Shown here in pieces: positions 7,087 to 61,240 of a stretch of 64,000 nucleotides of DNA. Under the pieces are notes generated by a model. The model did not search any database, was not told the DNA's origin, and saw only the letters and a list, made by a program, of their open reading frames with translations. Every line of letters starts with the position of its first letter. Positions within the stretch are counted from its first letter, which is position 1. This DNA is from Escherichia coli (lineage in GTDB: Bacteria; Pseudomonadota; Gammaproteobacteria; Enterobacterales; Enterobacteriaceae): NCBI RefSeq assembly GCF_016026235.1, contig NZ_CP065613.1; one strand, given 5' to 3'. Position numbers and translations under genes: made by a program.

Positions 7087-7746
7087 TTATTTTGCGGCGC
7101 GTGCCGCAGCGCGTTTGTGACGGATTATTTCGATGACGCCCGGCAAAATAGAAACCACAATAATCCCGACGATCAGCAGCTTAAGGTTATCCTGAACCAT
7201 CGGGATTGTACCGAAGAAATAGCCTGCGTAGGTAAAAAGCAGTACCCACAACAGTGCGCCGATCACGTTATAAGCAGCGAAATGACGGTACGACATGTGG
7301 CCCATTCCCGCAACAAACGGGGCGAACGTTCTGACGATCGGCACAAAACGGGCGAGAATAATCGTTTTGCCGCCATGTTTCTCATAAAACTGATGGGTTT
7401 TGTCGAGATAACTGCGACGGAAAATTTTCGAATTGGGATTACTGAATAACTTTTCACCGAACAACCGCCCGATAGTGTAATTGACCGCGTCACCCACAAT
7501 CGCGGCGATCAGCATCAGCACCACCATCATATGGACGTTGAGATCGTTGGTTTCCAGTGATGCCAACGCTCCGGCAACAAACAGCAATGAATCACCCGGT
7601 AAAAACGGCGTTACCACCAGACCGGTTTCACAGAACAAAATTAAGAACAAAATGGCATAAACCCAGACGCCGTACTCCGCGACCAGCTCTGCCAGATGCA
7701 CGTCAATGTGCAGGATAAAATCGATGAGGAAATAAATCAGGTCCAT
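7087..7746 (-). CDS. dedA: DedA family inner membrane protein
   Basis: 219-aa [33 protein letters not shown]... recognised as DedA. Confidence 0.9.
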
Positions 7747-50987: not shown

Positions 50988-51005
50988 TTCTTACGCCTGT
51001 AGGAT
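50988..51005. promoter_or_regulatory. Putative EvgA box in the emrK-evgA divergent intergenic region
   Basis: TTCTTACGCCTGTAGGAT resembles the EvgA inverted-repeat consensus TTCYTACA-NN-TGTARGAA. Confidence 0.45.
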
Positions 51006-51229: not shown

Positions 51230-51844
51230 ATGAACGCAATAATTATTGATGACCATCCTCTTGCTATCGCAGCAATTCGTAATTTATTGATCAAAAACGA
51301 TATTGAAATCTTAGCAGAGTTGACTGAAGGCGGAAGTGCCGTTCAGCGGGTGGAAACACTTAAGCCTGATATCGTCATCATTGATGTCGATATCCCCGGA
51401 GTTAACGGTATCCAGGTGTTAGAAACGCTGAGGAAGCGCCAATATAGCGGAATTATTATTATCGTCTCCGCTAAAAATGACCATTTTTACGGGAAACATT
51501 GTGCTGATGCTGGCGCTAATGGTTTCGTGAGTAAAAAAGAAGGCATGAACAATATCATTGCGGCTATTGAAGCTGCAAAAAATGGCTACTGCTATTTCCC
51601 TTTCTCTCTCAACCGGTTTGTTGGAAGTTTAACGTCCGACCAGCAAAAACTCGACTCCTTATCGAAACAAGAAATTAGTGTCATGCGCTATATTCTTGAT
51701 GGCAAGGATAATAATGACATTGCTGAAAAAATGTTCATCAGCAACAAAACTGTCAGCACTTATAAAAGTCGCCTGATGGAAAAATTAGAATGTAAATCAC
51801 TGATGGATCTTTACACATTCGCACAACGTAACAAAATCGGCTAA
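51230..51844 (+). CDS. evgA: Response regulator EvgA (LuxR/FixJ family)
   Basis: 204-aa ORF MNAIIIDDHPLAIAAIRNLLIKNDIEILAELTEGGSAVQRVETLKPDIVIIDVDIPG... Confidence 0.93.
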   Translation: MNAIIIDDHPLAIAAIRNLLIKNDIEILAELTEGGSAVQRVETLKPDIVIIDVDIPGVNGIQVLETLRKRQYSGIIIIVSAKNDHFYGKHCADAGANGFVSKKEGMNNIIAAIEAAKNGYCYFPFSLNRFVGSLTSDQQKLDSLSKQEISVMRYILDGKDNNDIAEKMFISNKTVSTYKSRLMEKLECKSLMDLYTFAQRNKIG

Positions 51845-51848
51845 CCAC

Positions 51849-54800
51849 ATGAAGTTTTTACCCTATATTTTTCTTCTCTGTTGTGGTCTTTGGTCGACCA
51901 TAAGTTTCGCAGACGAAGATTACATCGAATATCGTGGCATCAGTAGTAACAACCGTGTCACACTTGATCCACTACGTCTGAGCAACAAGGAATTACGTTG
52001 GTTAGCGAGCAAAAAAAATCTTGTGATTGCAGTACACAAGTCCCAAACGGCTACGTTGTTGCATACCGATTCGCAGCAACGGGTTCGTGGTATTAATGCT
52101 GATTATTTAAATCTTTTAAAAAGAGCGTTAAATATCAAATTAACACTCCGGGAATACGCAGATCATCAAAAAGCAATGGACGCGCTGGAAGAAGGTGAAG
52201 TCGATATAGTGTTATCACATTTAGTTGCTTCGCCGCCTCTTAATGATGACATTGCTGCAACCAAACCACTGATAATTACCTTTCCGGCGCTGGTCACCAC
52301 CCTTCACGATTCAATGCGACCGCTTACCTCATCAAAACCAGTAAATATTGCTCGAGTAGCAAATTATCCCCCTGACGAGGTAATTCATCAATCATTTCCA
52401 AAAGCAACAATTATCTCTTTTACAAATTTATATCAGGCATTAGCATCCGTCTCAGCCGGACAGAATGATTACTTTATTGGTAGTAACATCATTACCAGCA
52501 GTATGATTTCCCGCTATTTCACTCACTCCTTAAATGTAGTGAAATATTATAACTCACCGCGTCAATATAACTTCTTCTTAACCAGAAAAGAATCTGTCAT
52601 TCTTAATGAAGTACTCAATCGATTTGTTGATGCTTTAACAAATGAAGTTCGCTATGAAGTATCACAAAATTGGCTTGATACAGGAAACCTGGCCTTTCTG
52701 AACAAGCCATTAGAACTCACTGAACATGAAAAACAGTGGATTAAGCAGCATCCCGATTTAAAGGTGCTGGAAAATCCTTACTCGCCCCCCTATTCTATGA
52801 CGGATGAAAATGGCTCGGTTCGGGGCGTTATGGGGGACATTCTTAATATTATTACCTTGCAAACAGGTTTAAATTTTTCTCCGATCACCGTTTCACACAA
52901 TATCCATGCTGGAACACAGCTGAATCCCGGCGAATGGGATATATTACCCGGTGCTATTTATAGTGAAGATAGAGAAAATAATGTTTTATTTGCTGAAGCC
53001 TTCATAACAACGCCTTACGTTTTTGTCATGCAAAAAGCGCCTGACAGTGAACAAACATTAAAAAAAGGAATGAAAGTTGCCATTCCATATTATTATGAGC
53101 TTCATTCGCAATTAAAAGAGATGTATCCGGAGGTAGAGTGGATAAAAGTCGATAACGCCAGCGCTGCATTTCACAAGGTCAAGGAAGGCGAACTTGATGC
53201 TCTGGTCGCGACACAGTTAAATTCACGTTACATGATCGACCATTACTATCCTAATGAACTTTATCATTTTCTTATTCCCGGCGTTCCGAATGCATCGCTT
53301 TCGTTCGCTTTTCCTCGCGGAGAACCGGAACTTAAGGATATTATTAATAAAGCACTGAATGCAATCCCCCCAAGCGAAGTTCTGCGCCTGACCGAAAAAT
53401 GGATTAAAATGCCCAATGTGACCATTGACACATGGGACCTCTATAGCGAGCAATTTTATATTGTTACGACATTATCCGTTTTATTAGTTGGCAGTAGCCT
53501 TTTATGGGGATTCTACCTGTTACGCTCAGTTCGTCGTCGTAAAGTCATTCAGGGTGATTTAGAAAACCAAATATCATTCCGGAAAGCGCTCTCGGACTCC
53601 TTACCGAATCCAACTTATGTTGTAAACTGGCAAGGTAATGTCATTAGTCACAATAGTGCATTTGAACATTATTTCACTGCTGATTACTACAAAAATGCAA
53701 TGTTGCCATTAGAAAACAGTGAATCCCCCTTTAAAGATGTTTTTTCTAATACGCATGAAGTCACAGCAGAGACGAAAGAAAACCGAACAATATACACACA
53801 GGTATTTGAAATTGATAATGGCATCGAGAAAAGATGCATTAATCACTGGCATACATTATGTAATCTGCCAGCCAGCGAACATGCTGTTTATATTTGTGGT
53901 TGGCAAGATATTACCGAGACGCGTGATTTAATTCATGCACTCGAAGTAGAGAGAAATAAAGCGATCAATGCAACTGTCGCAAAAAGTCAGTTTCTGGCAA
54001 CAATGAGTCACGAAATAAGAACACCAATAAGCTCCATTATGGGCTTCCTGGAACTTCTGTCGGGTTCTGGTCTTAGCAAGGAACAACGGGTGGAGGCGAT
54101 TTCACTTGCCTACGCCACCGGACAATCACTCCTCGGCTTAATTGGTGAAATCCTTGATGTCGACAAAATTGAATCGGGTAACTATCAACTTCAACCACAA
54201 TGGGTCGATATTCCTACTTTAGTCCAGAACACTTGTCACTCTTTCGGTGCGATTGCTGCAAGCAAATCGATCGCATTAAGTTGCAGCAGTACGTTTCCTG
54301 AACATTACCTGGTTAAGATCGACCCTCAGGCGTTTAAGCAGGTCTTATCAAATTTACTGAGTAATGCTCTCAAATTTACCACCGAGGGGGCAGTAAAAAT
54401 TACAACCGCCCTGGTTCACATTGATGACAACCACGCTGTAATCAAAATGACGATTATGGATTCTGGAAGTGGATTATCACAGGAAGAACAACAACAACTG
54501 TTTAAACGTTATAGCCAAACAAGTGCAGGTCGTCAGCAAACAGGTTCTGGTTTAGGCTTAATGATCTGCAAAGAATTAATTAAAAACATGCAGGGTGATT
54601 TGTCATTAGAAAGTCATCCAGGCATAGGAACAACATTTACGATCACAATCCCGGTAGAAATTATCCAACAAGTGGCGGCTGTCGAGGCAAAAGCAGAACA
54701 ACCTATCACACTACCTGAAAAGTTGAGCATATTAATCGCGGATGATCATCCGACCAACAGGCTATTACTCAAACGCCAGCTAAATCTATTAGGATATGAT

Positions 54801-55442
54801 GTTGACGAAGCCACTGATGGTGTGCAAGCGCTACACAAAGTCAGTATGCAACATTATGATCTGCTTATTACTGACGTTAATATGCCGAATATGGATGGTT
54901 TTGAGTTGACTCGCAAACTCCGTGAGCAAAATTCGTCCTTACCCATCTGGGGGCTTACAGCCAACGCACAGGCTAACGAACGTGAAAAAGGGTTAAATTG
55001 CGGCATGAACTTATGTTTGTTCAAACCGTTGACCCTGGATGTACTGAAAACACATTTAAGTCAGTTACACCAGGTTGCGCATATTGCACCTCAGTATCGC
55101 CACCTTGATATCGAAGCCCTGAAAAATAATACGGCGAACGATCTACAACTGATGCAGGAGATTCTCATGACTTTCCAGCATGAAACGCATAAAGATCTAC
55201 CCGCTGCGTTTCATGCACTAGAAGCTGGCGATAATAGAACTTTCCATCAGTGTATTCATCGCATCCACGGTGCGGCTAACATCCTGAATTTGCAAAAGTT
55301 GATTAATATTAGCCATCAGTTAGAAATAACACCTGTTTCAGATGACAGTAAGCCTGAAATTCTTCAGCTGCTGAACTCTGTAAAAGAACACATTGCAGAG
55401 CTGGACCAGGAAATTGCTGTTTTCTGTCAGCAAAATGACTAA
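51849..55442 (+). CDS. evgS: Hybrid sensor histidine kinase EvgS (periplasmic binding domains, HisKA/HATPase, receiver, HPt)
   Basis: 1197-aa ORF MKFLPYIFLLCCGLWSTISFADEDYIEYRGISS...; H-box SHEIRTPISSIMGF. Confidence 0.93.
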   Translation: MKFLPYIFLLCCGLWSTISFADEDYIEYRGISSNNRVTLDPLRLSNKELRWLASKKNLVIAVHKSQTATLLHTDSQQRVRGINADYLNLLKRALNIKLTLREYADHQKAMDALEEGEVDIVLSHLVASPPLNDDIAATKPLIITFPALVTTLHDSMRPLTSSKPVNIARVANYPPDEVIHQSFPKATIISFTNLYQALASVSAGQNDYFIGSNIITSSMISRYFTHSLNVVKYYNSPRQYNFFLTRKESVILNEVLNRFVDALTNEVRYEVSQNWLDTGNLAFLNKPLELTEHEKQWIKQHPDLKVLENPYSPPYSMTDENGSVRGVMGDILNIITLQTGLNFSPITVSHNIHAGTQLNPGEWDILPGAIYSEDRENNVLFAEAFITTPYVFVMQKAPDSEQTLKKGMKVAIPYYYELHSQLKEMYPEVEWIKVDNASAAFHKVKEGELDALVATQLNSRYMIDHYYPNELYHFLIPGVPNASLSFAFPRGEPELKDIINKALNAIPPSEVLRLTEKWIKMPNVTIDTWDLYSEQFYIVTTLSVLLVGSSLLWGFYLLRSVRRRKVIQGDLENQISFRKALSDSLPNPTYVVNWQGNVISHNSAFEHYFTADYYKNAMLPLENSESPFKDVFSNTHEVTAETKENRTIYTQVFEIDNGIEKRCINHWHTLCNLPASEHAVYICGWQDITETRDLIHALEVERNKAINATVAKSQFLATMSHEIRTPISSIMGFLELLSGSGLSKEQRVEAISLAYATGQSLLGLIGEILDVDKIESGNYQLQPQWVDIPTLVQNTCHSFGAIAASKSIALSCSSTFPEHYLVKIDPQAFKQVLSNLLSNALKFTTEGAVKITTALVHIDDNHAVIKMTIMDSGSGLSQEEQQQLFKRYSQTSAGRQQTGSGLGLMICKELIKNMQGDLSLESHPGIGTTFTITIPVEIIQQVAAVEAKAEQPITLPEKLSILIADDHPTNRLLLKRQLNLLGYDVDEATDGVQALHKVSMQHYDLLITDVNMPNMDGFELTRKLREQNSSLPIWGLTANAQANEREKGLNCGMNLCLFKPLTLDVLKTHLSQLHQVAHIAPQYRHLDIEALKNNTANDLQLMQEILMTFQHETHKDLPAAFHALEAGDNRTFHQCIHRIHGAANILNLQKLINISHQLEITPVSDDSKPEILQLLNSVKEHIAELDQEIAVFCQQND

Positions 55443-55497: not shown

Positions 55498-56643
55498 TTA
55501 TGATGAGAACTCCTGGCGAATTTGCTCCCCATGCTGGTCGAGCGTTGCCGCTCCCGGCATAACATGCGGGTCCGCGCAGCCACTGATTTTTATCGGATTA
55601 CCCGGCATCATTATTCCCCCGGCTTCAATCAACATATTTCTCGCCTGAGTTTGTGGCAAATTAATGGCCTCAGCCACACTTAATAACGGCGCGACGGGCA
55701 CACCAACTTCATGTATTCTGGCTAACCAAACTTCAGCTGCCTGTGTTTTTAACGTCCGCTCAATATATTGTTTAAGAATAGCCTGGTTTTGTACGCGTAA
55801 AATATTGCTGCTAAATCGGGGATCATTAACCAGTTCTGTAAGCTCCAGTGCCTGGCATAACGCAGAAAAAAGCTTGTCATTACCACAACAAATCGTAATC
55901 GACTTATCCTGAGTATCAAAAACATCAAAAGGTGCCATGTAGGGATGGCGATTTCCCAGGCGTTGTGGTGACTTCCCTGTCGCAATATATGCCATCAGAC
56001 CATGCTCCAGAAAACTCAGCGTGGCATCAAACATCGCTATATCGACATGCGCCCCTCTCTGGCTCTTTTCGCGGCCATAAAGTGCACTCACTATTCCGCT
56101 GAATAAATAGACACCGCCGCATAGATCCGCAAGAGAGGTACCAACACGCACTGGCGGAGCATCAGGGTACCCTGTTTCCATCATTATCCCGCTCATTGCC
56201 TGAATGATGGTATCGTAGGCAGGAGCATCTTTTAGCGGACCGGTATGTCCGAAACCTGACGATGAAGCATATATGAGGCGCGGGTTGATTTCTTGTAACC
56301 TTTCCCATGAAAACCCCAGTTTTTCCATTGTACCTGGGCGAAAATTCTCAGCTAATACATCAGCTTGTTTAAGCATATTTATAAATATACTTTTATCGTG
56401 ATCATTCTTTAGATCAAGAACCACACTCTCTTTGCCATGATTATTAAAACTGTAATAGAGTGACTGTCCATCCACATAGGGGCCAAATGTGCGGGTATCA
56501 TCACCATGACCCGGCGGCTCAACTTTAATTACCCTTGCGCCCATATTACAAAGAAGTTGAGTTCCGAAAGGCCCATTAAGGACATGCGTCATATCGATAA
56601 CTAATAAGCCTTCAAACGGCCCTTTGCTTTCATTATTTGTCAT
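55498..56643 (-). CDS. yfdE: CoA-transferase family III protein (acetyl-CoA:oxalate CoA-transferase)
   Basis: ATG at 56643 gives MTNNESKGPFEGLLVIDMTHVLNGPFGTQLL..., 381 aa. Confidence 0.88.
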   Translation of the reverse strand: MTNNESKGPFEGLLVIDMTHVLNGPFGTQLLCNMGARVIKVEPPGHGDDTRTFGPYVDGQSLYYSFNNHGKESVVLDLKNDHDKSIFINMLKQADVLAENFRPGTMEKLGFSWERLQEINPRLIYASSSGFGHTGPLKDAPAYDTIIQAMSGIMMETGYPDAPPVRVGTSLADLCGGVYLFSGIVSALYGREKSQRGAHVDIAMFDATLSFLEHGLMAYIATGKSPQRLGNRHPYMAPFDVFDTQDKSITICCGNDKLFSALCQALELTELVNDPRFSSNILRVQNQAILKQYIERTLKTQAAEVWLARIHEVGVPVAPLLSVAEAINLPQTQARNMLIEAGGIMMPGNPIKISGCADPHVMPGAATLDQHGEQIRQEFSS

Positions 56644-56716: not shown

Positions 56717-57661
56717 TTATGAAACCAGTCGACTGACATAAATCCACAAGGGAGCCGTGACGACAAAACCCAGTACGCTCACAGCCAATGACGCTGTACC
56801 AGTGCGGGTGTAGACATTAAACCGGCTGGCAATAATGATTCCGGAGAATGCCGGCGGTAATGCGCCTGCCAGTACCATCATCTGCAGATGTTCGCTGTTC
56901 AAATGACATGCCATACCAACAAGAAGCAGCGCCAGTGGCATCAGAATCAGCTTCAGGAAGGTGTTATAAGCAATTTCGGCACTGAACTCGAATTTATGTG
57001 CAGCCAGAGTCAACCCCGCAGCGAATACCGCTACCCCTGAGTTAGCCTTCGCAATCAGATTAAAGGTTGGGTCCCATGCTGCCGGAATTTTTACCCCAAC
57101 CAGCACCAGGATCGTTGCCAGAACAGGTGCCCATACTACAGGCTCCTTTGCCGCAGAAATTAATGCGCTCAGATTACTATTCTTCTTACCATCCGCTCCT
57201 GAGGAAGGATTCAGCAAATACAGACCAATAGGAATAGTAATTGCGTTAACAATAATAGAAATAATTGCTACAACTAAACCTGTTGATACGGAATCACCAT
57301 AAATAGGGTCGAGAACTGCAAATCCCAGGAATCCAATAGTAGGTGAACCTGCAATTAATGCACATACAGCTGCTTCTGCATGAGTACGTTTAAAAAATTT
57401 GTAGCAACCGAACCAGGAGAAAAAGAAACATCCGACAATAACCACAAGTGATACAAGGGTCAGACGAGTGTCCGCAAAAATCATTTCCCTGTTTGCCCGG
57501 GTAATAGAAACAAATAGGGCTGCAGGAAGCGCGTAGTTTAATACCAGTTTATTAAATGCCCGGGCTTGATCTTCTGAAAATGTTTCTCGTCTGCCGCTAA
57601 AATAACCCAACAGCATGATTACGATAATAGGCAATAAATCGCCAATAAAAAATGTTAGCAT
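56717..57661 (-). CDS. yfdV: AEC-family membrane transporter
   Basis: 314-aa polytopic [34 protein letters not shown]... Confidence 0.88.
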
Positions 57662-57730: not shown

Positions 57731-59425
57731 TTAATTACCAGCGACTTGTTTTGGGTTAAGTTTGGTAATATGGCCACTTTCAGTTCCTGCTGCAGGGTCG
57801 ATGACCACGTTAATAATGGTCGGTTTGCGCGACTGAATACCGGTGGTTAAAGCATGACGAAGTTCATCTGTCGTGGTTACGTTATAGCCAACGCCACGAA
57901 ACGCATCCATTAATTTGTCATACCTTGCATGGTGCAACAGATCTGTTGGTGATGGTGCACCAGCGCCACTGAGATCAACACCGTCTCCTCTGTAGATGCC
58001 GCCATTATTAAAAATAACGATCGTCACCGGCAGGTTATATCGACAAATCGTTTCAATCTCCATCCCACTGAAACCAAAAGCACTATCACCTTCAATGGCG
58101 ACAACCGGAGAACCAGAGGTCACGCTAGCACCGATGGCATAGCCCATACCGATGCCCATGACACCCCAGGTACCACAATCCAGACGACGACGTGGTTTAT
58201 ACATATCAATAATATTTCGTGCATTATCCAGGGTATTTGCACCTTCATTAACTAAATAAATATCCTGGTTCTCACGCAATACATCGCGCACAGCACTTAA
58301 TGCATTAAAGTAATTTAATGGTTGGGTATCTGTACTTAATTTTTCATGCATTTTTTGTGCATTTTGCTGCTTGTGGATATTTAAAATATCGCGCCATACC
58401 AGTGGAGTCGTAAATGTGTTTTGTTTCAGTTCTGCCAGCATACCTTGCATACTGGATGCAATATCGCCAACGACTGGCACAGCAATGGGGCGGTTGCTGT
58501 CAATTTCCTGCGGTTCAATATCCAGTTGAATAAACTGTGTATCTGCCGCCCATCCTTTTTTACCGTGTGCCAGTAACCAATTCAGTCGTGCACCAACAAG
58601 CATGACAACGTCAGCATTTGCCAGGGCAAACGAACGCGCAGCTGCCGCAGAAAGTGGATGCGTATCTTCGAGGATCCCTTTCGCCATAGACATTGGCAGG
58701 AATGGAATCTGGGCACTTTCAATAAATTCACGAAGCTGTTCGTCAGCTTGTGAATACGCCGCGCCTTTGCCAAGGATAATTAATGGCCGTTCAGCTTTTG
58801 CTAAAAGCGAAATTGCGCTAGTGACTGACTTCGGGCATGGCAATAATGCTGGCGACGGATTTTCAACTTTTACAATCGTGGTTAACGCTTCGTCTTTTTC
58901 CATCGTCGCGGCCAGGACATTTGCTGGCAAATCAAGATAAACTCCGCCAGGGCGACCCGATACTGAGACCCGGATAGCGCGTGCCAATGCAATGCCAAGA
59001 TCCTGCGGCTGATTAACGCGAAATGCAGCTTTGGCATACGATTTTGCCGCATTCATTTGGTCCAGCTCTTCATAATCACCTTGCTGTAGGTCGACGATCG
59101 CGCGGTCGCTGGAGCCGCTAATCATGATCATCGGAAAACCATTTACCGTTGCGTTGGCCAATGCGGTCAAACCATTGAGGAATCCTGGCGCAGACACTGT
59201 CAGGCAGATCCCTGGTTTTTGGGTAAGAAAACCGCTTGCCGCAGCGGCATAGCCTGCCGACTGCTCATGACGAAAACCAATATAACGAATGCCTTCCGCC
59301 TGGGCATGGCGCGCCATATCCGTCACAGGAATACCTACAACACCATAAATAGTGTCAATATTATTCTGTTTTAATGCTTCAACGATGATATGCATACCAT
59401 CTGTCATTTGAAGTTGATCTGACAT
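57731..59425 (-). CDS. oxc: Oxalyl-CoA decarboxylase (ThDP-dependent)
   Basis: 564-aa ORF MSDQLQMTDGMHIIVEALKQNNIDTIYGVVGIPVTDMA... Confidence 0.92.
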   Translation of the reverse strand: MSDQLQMTDGMHIIVEALKQNNIDTIYGVVGIPVTDMARHAQAEGIRYIGFRHEQSAGYAAAASGFLTQKPGICLTVSAPGFLNGLTALANATVNGFPMIMISGSSDRAIVDLQQGDYEELDQMNAAKSYAKAAFRVNQPQDLGIALARAIRVSVSGRPGGVYLDLPANVLAATMEKDEALTTIVKVENPSPALLPCPKSVTSAISLLAKAERPLIILGKGAAYSQADEQLREFIESAQIPFLPMSMAKGILEDTHPLSAAAARSFALANADVVMLVGARLNWLLAHGKKGWAADTQFIQLDIEPQEIDSNRPIAVPVVGDIASSMQGMLAELKQNTFTTPLVWRDILNIHKQQNAQKMHEKLSTDTQPLNYFNALSAVRDVLRENQDIYLVNEGANTLDNARNIIDMYKPRRRLDCGTWGVMGIGMGYAIGASVTSGSPVVAIEGDSAFGFSGMEIETICRYNLPVTIVIFNNGGIYRGDGVDLSGAGAPSPTDLLHHARYDKLMDAFRGVGYNVTTTDELRHALTTGIQSRKPTIINVVIDPAAGTESGHITKLNPKQVAGN

Positions 59426-59478: not shown

Positions 59479-60729
59479 TCAGATGGCGTGGTTTTGCTTC
59501 ATTGCAGCAATTTCATCGTCGCTATAACCCAGCTCCTGCAATACAGCAGCGGTATGTTCACCTAATAGCGGCGCAGCTTTAATATCCGGCGTAAAGTCAG
59601 AGAATTTCATTGGACAACCAACTGTCAGATATTTTCCACGCAACGGTTGTTCCACTTCGACAACACTGCCACTTTGGCGCAAAGAGGGATCAAGTGAAAT
59701 TTCTTTCATACTTAAAACCGGTGCACAAGGAATATCAAATTGAGTCAAATAGGCCACCGCTTCATGTTTATCAATAGTGACAGTGTATTTTTCGATTTCA
59801 GCAAAAATATCGAAAATATGTGGCTGTCGGGCATGGGCTGTACTGTATGCCGGATCGGTAATCCAATCTGGTTTGCCGATGGCTTTACAGGTGTTTTCCC
59901 AGTTTTGCTCCTGAATAGTGAAATAAATATAGGCGTTAGGATCGGTTTCCCAGCCTTTACATTTCAGGATCCAGCCAGGCTGACCGCCACCACCCGCATT
60001 ACCTCCGCGGGGAACTGCATCACCAAATGTGCCATTCGGATACTGCGGGTATTCTTCCAGATAACCCAATTTATCGAGACGCTGCTGGTCGCGTAATTTC
60101 ACGCGGCAAAGGTTCAATACGGCATCCTGCATTGACATGGTGACTCGTTGCCCACGCCCCGTTTTTTCGCGATGCAGCAAAGCAGCAAGTAAACCGATCA
60201 GTAAATGCATTCCGGTGTTGCTGTCTCCTAACGCTGCAGCGCTTACCAGCGGCGGACCGTCCCAAAAACCCGTAGTGGATGCCGCGCCACCCGCTGCCTG
60301 AGCAACGTTTTCATAGGCTTTTACATTCACATAAGGCGAACACTCATCAAACCCTTTGATCGAACCAAAAATCAGACGTGGATTGATTTCTTGAATATGC
60401 TCCCAGGTGAAACCCATGTGATCAATGGCCCCTGGATGAAAGTTCTCGACTAAGATATCAGCTTCGCGGATCAGCTTTTCCATTACCTCTTTGCCTTCCG
60501 CTGTTTTGGTATTTAACTCAATAGAACGTTTGTTACTGTTAAGCATGGTGAAGTAAAGCGCATCGATATCAGGAATATCTCGCAGCTGGTGACGCGTTAC
60601 GTCACCAACGCCGGGGCGTTCAATTTTAATGACGTCAGCGCCAAACCAGGCCAGCATTTGAGTACAAGATGGGCCAGATTGCACACCGGTGAAATCGAGA
60701 ACTTTAATTCCTTGAAGTGGAGTTGACAT
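59479..60729 (-). CDS. frc: Formyl-CoA:oxalate CoA-transferase
   Basis: 416-aa [49 protein letters not shown]... Confidence 0.92.
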
Positions 60730-60979
60730 AGCAATACCTATTAGTTAATTAAATATGTGTTAATTTAGCGTTTATTTAAGGCATAACGCCTCTATAAATA
60801 ATCCGCAAAATATCGTCGTAGCGGCACTCGATATTTTTACATTCCTGTATCAAGTACTGAAAATCATTTCATCGCCACTTCCAATTCCTTTCTGCATGGT
60901 AAGTAGTGAGGACGAAAAGAAGAATATGATAAATATTGCTTCGCGGTAATCAGAGAGAGCCGCGAGATTTGTGATGTTA

Positions 60980-60997
60980 TTCTTACAACTGTAAGAA
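60980..60997. promoter_or_regulatory. Putative EvgA box upstream of frc (perfect palindrome)
   Basis: TTCTTACAACTGTAAGAA is an exact TTCTTACA-NN-TGTAAGAA inverted repeat, about 250 bp upstream of the frc start. Confidence 0.55.
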
Positions 60998-61240
60998 GCG
61001 CCGGTGATTTACAAGAAAGGGTATGATTACGCTTTTTAAAGCGTACCATAAAATATAACATAATAAATGATTTGTGATGACGCGGGATTATTACGGTTTA
61101 CTTTGAGGAATATAAAATGCGAGTTTATAGCAGCGCGAGCGCCAAATAATTTTATGACCACAACCTGTCGTATTGTGGTCATAAAAAATTGTCGGCTGGA
61201 GGGAGTTAAATCCTTTACCTCAATATACTGCCTGTCAGCA

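Follow-up and report, generated by a model that had tools for sequence, protein, structure and literature searches.

An EvgA box with perfect consensus in the yfdX-frc spacer of Escherichia coli, an already known and strongly conserved element

The window, i.e. the whole 64-kb stretch of DNA analysed here, matches E. coli strain FDAARGOS_943 at 100% and represents the E. coli region containing emrY, emrK, evgA, evgS, yfdE, yfdV, oxc, frc, yfdX, ypdI and further genes. The identities of the yfdX-frc-oxc-yfdV-yfdE genes, as named in the original prediction, were confirmed by this gene content. EvgA is a response regulator of the NarL/FixJ type, and such proteins bind short inverted repeats as dimers. 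The evgA gene is located about 9 kb from the EvgA box upstream of frc, in the same window. The genes of the region and the elements between yfdX and frc are listed below.

51230-55442, plus strand: evgA (regulator, 51230-51844) and evgS (sensor kinase, 51849-55442)
55498-56643, minus strand: yfdE, acetyl-CoA:oxalate CoA-transferase
56717-57661, minus strand: yfdV, putative transporter
57731-59425, minus strand: oxc (yfdU), oxalyl-CoA decarboxylase
59479-60729, minus strand: frc (yfdW), encoding formyl-CoA transferase; nearest gene downstream of the box
60980-60997, no strand assigned: EvgA box, TTCTTACA-AC-TGTAAGAA, which is TTCTTACAGTTGTAAGAA when read toward frc
61150-61186, minus strand: intrinsic terminator of yfdX, with a stem of 14-15 bp, a loop of 7-9 nt and a T-rich tail
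61241-61876, minus strand: yfdX, a separate upstream transcription unit

A sequence check of the window placed the 18-mer TTCTTACAACTGTAAGAA at exactly 60980-60997, inside the 511-bp yfdX-frc spacer and 250 bp 5' of the ATG of frc, which is encoded on the minus strand. The counterpart in K-12 MG1655 is located at NC_000913.3 2493506-2493523. The element had been described as a perfect 18-bp palindrome. The position is exact and the two 8-bp arms are perfect, but the central dinucleotide AC is not symmetric, and the 18-mer differs from its reverse complement at these two positions, so that 16 of the 18 positions are symmetric and the geometry is 8-2-8. A 65-aa open reading frame on the minus strand (60864-61061) runs across the box but is not regarded as a gene, since it carries no annotation in K-12 or any other strain examined and contains an in-frame TAG in ST131.

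The window was scanned with the motif TTCYTACA-N2-TGTARGAA (16 specified positions), which we take to be the EvgA consensus and which was checked against the boxes of safA, ydeP, yegR, emrK/evgA and yfdX. The frc box has zero mismatches to TTCYTACANNTGTARGAA and is the sole zero-mismatch match in the window; together with the 8-2-8 geometry, this bears out its assignment as an EvgA box. In 200 composition-preserving shuffles of the window the expected number of sites was 0.00 for 0-1 mismatch, 0.04 for 2 mismatches and 0.74 for 3 mismatches. Sites with at most 3 mismatches number four in the window, all of them in three spacers adjoining EvgA-regulated genes. The three sites other than the frc box are as follows.

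50988-51005, no strand assigned: EvgA box in the divergent emrK-evgA spacer, TTCTTACGCCTGTAGGAT, 2 mismatches
61974-61991, no strand assigned: proximal, weaker EvgA-like box of yfdX, 3 mismatches
62012-62029, no strand assigned: distal EvgA box of yfdX, GTCTTACAATTGTAGGAA, 1 mismatch

The box could in principle be a chance inverted repeat without function, since a generic perfect 8-2-8 repeat should arise about once in 64 kb by chance. The window contains four of them where 1.1 are expected, and up to 4 were seen in shuffles, so the generic repeat is not rare. What is rare about the frc box is its match to the specific EvgA motif and not the 8-2-8 repeat itself: a zero-mismatch match to the 16 specified positions was not obtained in any of the shuffles. 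One of the other perfect 8-2-8 repeats, TACGCTTT-TT-AAAGCGTA, is located at 61028-61045, 48 bp 5' of the frc box relative to frc. It was considered as a partner site and rejected, being unconserved both in ST131, which has two substitutions in one arm, and in Yersinia; this repeat is probably due to chance.

In K-12, boxes with 1-2 mismatches were found 5' of safA, ydeP and yegR, and among the EvgA boxes at the loci examined only the frc box has the perfect consensus. The other EvgA targets (safA-ydeO, ydeP, yegR, emrKY/evgAS and yfdX) share with frc the 8-2-8 geometry and the half-site TTCYTACA, and at frc and the other direct targets the distance from box to start codon, within the upstream spacer, is 107-268 bp. 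The arrangement at yfdX differs from that at frc in having two boxes, 38 bp apart, instead of one; both of these and the intervening GCGATAA are kept 5' of yfdX in Yersinia vastinensis (approximately 1634-1700 of locus L014). No match with up to 3 mismatches was found in the hdeD-gadE spacer of K-12, a reported EvgA target, and the consensus therefore misses some reported EvgA sites. A 2-mismatch sequence resembling the EvgA box, TTCTTACGCATGAAAGAA, was observed inside the coding region of mdtE (locus L023, 7887-7904; K-12, 3659886-3659903).

The comparison with published EvgA sites showed that the element has been reported before. The legend to Figure 2 of Mullins et al. (PMC3720670), which cites Masuda & Church 2003, gives EvgA-bound inverted repeats 5' of both yfdX and yfdWUVE, where yfdW is frc. 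As far as that legend describes it, the published K-12 repeat 5' of yfdW/frc is the same element in the same yfdX-frc spacer, and nothing substantive differs. A 2021 review counts the frc promoter as one that EvgA 'strongly binds' (PMC8147483). In evgS-constitutive mutants, frc and oxc belong to the most induced genes, and the same study located EvgA sites at no targets other than those known before (Johnson et al. 2014, PMC4283999); acid induces frc, oxc, yfdV and yfdX (PMC10746267). The box lies in a non-coding region 5' of a gene whose expression is raised by EvgA/EvgS activation (PMC4283999) and by acid (PMC10746267).

Within E. coli, five divergent lineages, K-12 MG1655 and ST131 among them, were aligned; all have the identical box, whereas the bases directly 5' of it are variable (CACCGGCGC for the window versus CACTGACAC for ST131). 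Between the window strain and K-12, the box and its flanks are identical and the differences are scattered over the spacer outside the box. A 30-mer comprising the box and 12 downstream bases is present in 5406 of 5426 complete E. coli genomes; it is free of mismatches in 5404 of the 5407 matching records, where 'without mismatch' denotes the band of at least 99% identity. The whole yfdX-frc spacer is only 95-97% identical to most genomes. About 20 of the 5426 genomes are without the box region. In E. coli 1218KP (locus L006), an IS1 element lies 118 bp 5' of frc, only 57 bp of the spacer are left, and neither the EvgA box nor yfdX is retained, which makes this strain a natural operator-deletion variant.

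A cross-genus scan with a degenerate pattern from the 5' coding region of frc, using one genome per species, returned 14 loci, with representatives from Y. vastinensis, an Erwinia sp., Providencia spp., Moellerella, Orbus and a Klebsiella sp. The output contained no Escherichia or Shigella record, even though the pattern matches the window itself. The Y. vastinensis locus alone gave information on synteny; this species has an island with yfdX-frc-oxc-yfdV-yfdE and a convergent evgS, as in E. coli, and carries TTCTTACACGCGTAAGAA 277 bp 5' of frc. The box and the following 34 bp are identical at 47 of 52 positions between E. coli and Y. vastinensis, compared with a background of 57% in the spacer and 60% at third codon positions of frc (binomial p ~1e-7 per window; <1e-3 after correction for all windows). 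The box is therefore conserved above background, and it co-occurs with evgS, Y. vastinensis being the sole non-Escherichia evgS locus available. The frc loci of Providencia, Moellerella, Orbus and the Klebsiella sp. contain no box with up to 4 mismatches within 700 bp upstream, and no evgS or yfdX was found in the frc loci fetched from these organisms. Invariance of the site in more than 5400 genomes and its retention in Yersinia against a near-saturated background leave next to no probability for a functionless repeat, and the conservation data effectively refute that reading.

The palindrome could instead be the site of another regulator, either of the NarL/FixJ family, such as RcsB, or GadE or YdeO, with indirect control by EvgA. 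Short inverted repeats of a related kind serve as targets of NarL/FixJ-type regulators; in Klebsiella pneumoniae, the promoter region of yfdX is bound by RcsB (PMC6394985), and SlyA affects Frc levels in Shigella (PMC6128205). However, the RcsB element KMRGAWTMWYCTGS, as printed in PMC6394985, has no match with up to 2 mismatches on either strand of 60730-61240, and the yfdX-frc spacer contains no match to the GAD box better than 6 mismatches in 20. The frc box is perfect for the motif common to safA, ydeP, yegR, emrK and yfdX, the passages cited above report binding of EvgA itself at this place (PMC3720670, PMC8147483), and the box accompanies evgS across genera. Control by such a regulator is accordingly regarded as very improbable.

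Transcription of frc from the yfdX promoter has to be considered in view of the terminator at 61150-61186. This strong terminator shows no differences among the five E. coli lineages and is kept in Yersinia, and it belongs to the best-conserved parts of the spacer (80-85% versus 57% overall between E. coli and Y. vastinensis). Because a conserved intrinsic terminator is located between yfdX and the box, frc needs a promoter of its own, and the arrangement fits two units, yfdX and frc-oxc-yfdV-yfdE. The arms of the box can also pair in RNA, with a 7-bp stem and a 4-nt loop, and could in that case form a terminator, attenuator or processing site in a yfdX-frc read-through transcript. Such a hairpin would be weak, at -6.0 kcal/mol with a z of -1.7 for the frc strand and of -0.7 for the opposite one; no T-run follows it, and the terminator scan made no call at the box. 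An Rfam search of 60600-62300 gave no match at the box, the sole sub-threshold match, to a microRNA, being on the yfdX terminator. In Yersinia one arm is changed from TGTAAGAA to CGTAAGAA without a compensating change in the other arm, and a role as an RNA hairpin is hardly credible.

The elements of the predicted frc promoter, downstream of the box, are as follows.

60946-60979, minus strand: 34-bp block TAACATCACAAATCTCGCGGCTCTCTCTGATTAC directly 3' of the box, 2 differences from Y. vastinensis
60948-60957, minus strand: motif CTCTCTGATT, its centre 38 bp downstream of the box centre
60921-60926, minus strand: TATTCT, the predicted -10 hexamer, which aligns with TATGAT in yfdX and with TATTAT in Yersinia frc

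Only two exact copies of CTCTCTGATT occur in the window, at 60948-60957 and, also on the minus strand, at 61942-61951, and the latter has the same 38-bp offset from the proximal yfdX box. In this respect the sequence 3' of the frc box resembles that of yfdX and not those of safA, ydeP or yegR. A gap-free alignment of four regions (E. coli frc, the proximal box of E. coli yfdX and the two Yersinia counterparts) provided the promoter register. A TATNNT hexamer is found 21 nt past CTCTCTGATT in each of them, namely TATTCT in E. coli frc, TATGAT in both yfdX regions and TATTAT in Yersinia frc; an alternative -10 hexamer, TATCAT at 60926-60931, is present in E. coli only. Judged from this register, CTCTCTGATT is probably part of the -35 region. 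The predicted start of frc is at about 60914 (K-12, about 2493440), corresponding to a box centre near -74.5 and a leader of about 185 nt. The predicted leader folds mildly better than shuffled sequences (z = -2.0) and has no Rfam match. A class II arrangement for frc, with the box overlapping the -35 region and TTGTAA as the -35 hexamer, was rejected, there being no -10-like hexamer at a distance of 16-18 bp.

It is tentatively suggested, with the odds clearly against it, that the box is only part of the operator and that the 34-bp block with CTCTCTGATT marks a second cis element of the EvgA-dependent promoters of the island that has not yet been described. Such an element could be the site of a co-factor, a surface contacted by another EvgA dimer that binds weakly, or a -35 or spacer element of unusual type on which activation depends. 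The register of CTCTCTGATT shared by frc and yfdX may alternatively reflect the common ancestry of two duplicated promoters.

A consensus scan of the minus strand between the box and the frc ATG detected no good sigma-70 promoter. Poor agreement with the sigma-70 consensus is usual for activator-dependent promoters. The lack of a good -35 hexamer downstream of the box would also suit a reading in which EvgA binds the box and acts mainly by displacing H-NS or on a constitutive promoter further upstream, at 61116-61087. The spacer is AT-rich, with 37-39% G+C versus about 50% in the flanking genes. Shimada et al. 2014 reported a genomic SELEX peak of the RpoD holoenzyme in the yfdX-frc spacer, with H-NS marked, and proposed an frc promoter TTTATA-18-AATAAT (PMC3946193), which was found by scanning at 61116-61087 on the minus strand. 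This promoter is upstream of the box, and the box would therefore fall inside the region transcribed from it. Against this reading, E. coli and Yersinia share only 35-45% identity over 61060-61140, the conserved part of the spacer being the box with the 80 bp that follow, and the recurrence at yfdX of the register of box, CTCTCTGATT and TATNNT argues for a promoter downstream of the box. EvgA action mainly through H-NS or the upstream promoter is thus considered unlikely.

The preferred reading, to which we assign a probability of roughly 0.9 in view of the consensus match, the conservation, the yfdX terminator and the literature on EvgA binding and induction, is that 60980-60997 is the site at which a dimer of phosphorylated EvgA would activate a separate promoter of frc-oxc-yfdV-yfdE. 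At mildly acidic pH, the kinase EvgS would phosphorylate EvgA, the phosphorylated dimer would bind the 8-2-8 repeat, and the bound protein would activate a weak sigma-70 promoter just downstream on the minus strand. The frc promoter would then drive frc-oxc-yfdV-yfdE as a unit apart from yfdX, with yfdX using its own pair of EvgA boxes and its own intrinsic terminator. Activation presumably involves recruitment of RNA polymerase from an upstream site, possibly combined with relief of H-NS silencing. NarL 7-2-7 sites and the inverted heptads of BvgA are likewise inverted repeats with a 2-bp gap that are bound by dimeric helix-turn-helix regulators, and activation of the NarL/BvgA type proceeds from sites that overlap the -35 region or lie upstream of it. 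Compared with these sites, as generally known, the frc box has another half-site sequence, and the EvgA half-sites are 8 bp long; membership of the frc box in the NarL or BvgA regulons is not proposed.

The original prediction of an EvgA-dependent frc promoter in addition to the yfdX promoter is supported by the literature, the consensus match, the conservation and the yfdX terminator. The idea is correct, yet already in the literature, and the frc EvgA box is a known, ordinary and strongly conserved element. The site would explain how the proton-consuming oxalate/formyl-CoA cycle (frc, oxc, yfdE) is coupled to acid sensing by EvgS/EvgA independently of yfdX, which has also been published. The present analysis adds the observation that it is the sole perfect-consensus box among the loci examined, a quantitative record of its conservation in E. 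coli and Yersinia, and, from the comparison with yfdX, a testable prediction of the promoter register.

Several observations were made on frc loci outside E. coli. The island of Y. vastinensis IP38594 (locus L014, 1-10800) directly follows arsB-arsC; its proteins are 80-96% identical to those of E. coli and its third codon positions about 60%, which suggests an old horizontal transfer of the genes together with their operators. In Moellerella and Providencia spp. (loci L009, L010, L018 and L020) two frc paralogues are present in the order frc-oxc-yfdV-frc2, often followed by yfdE. The Moellerella and Providencia clusters are without yfdX, evgS and an EvgA box, and the same enzymes must therefore be under different regulation there. 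Erwinia sp. ErVv1 (locus L013, approximately 7380-7400) has a box-like perfect 8-2-8 palindrome, ATCCTACAGATGTAGGAT, 238 bp 5' of frc; its neighbours are a fragment of an IS3 transposase and the gene of a P4-type primase, and yfdX is absent. A 498-bp contig of 'Terrisporobacter petrolearius' (locus L007, coverage 0.93) encodes residues 1-104 of Frc with 100% identity to E. coli and almost certainly stems from E. coli DNA contaminating a Firmicute assembly.
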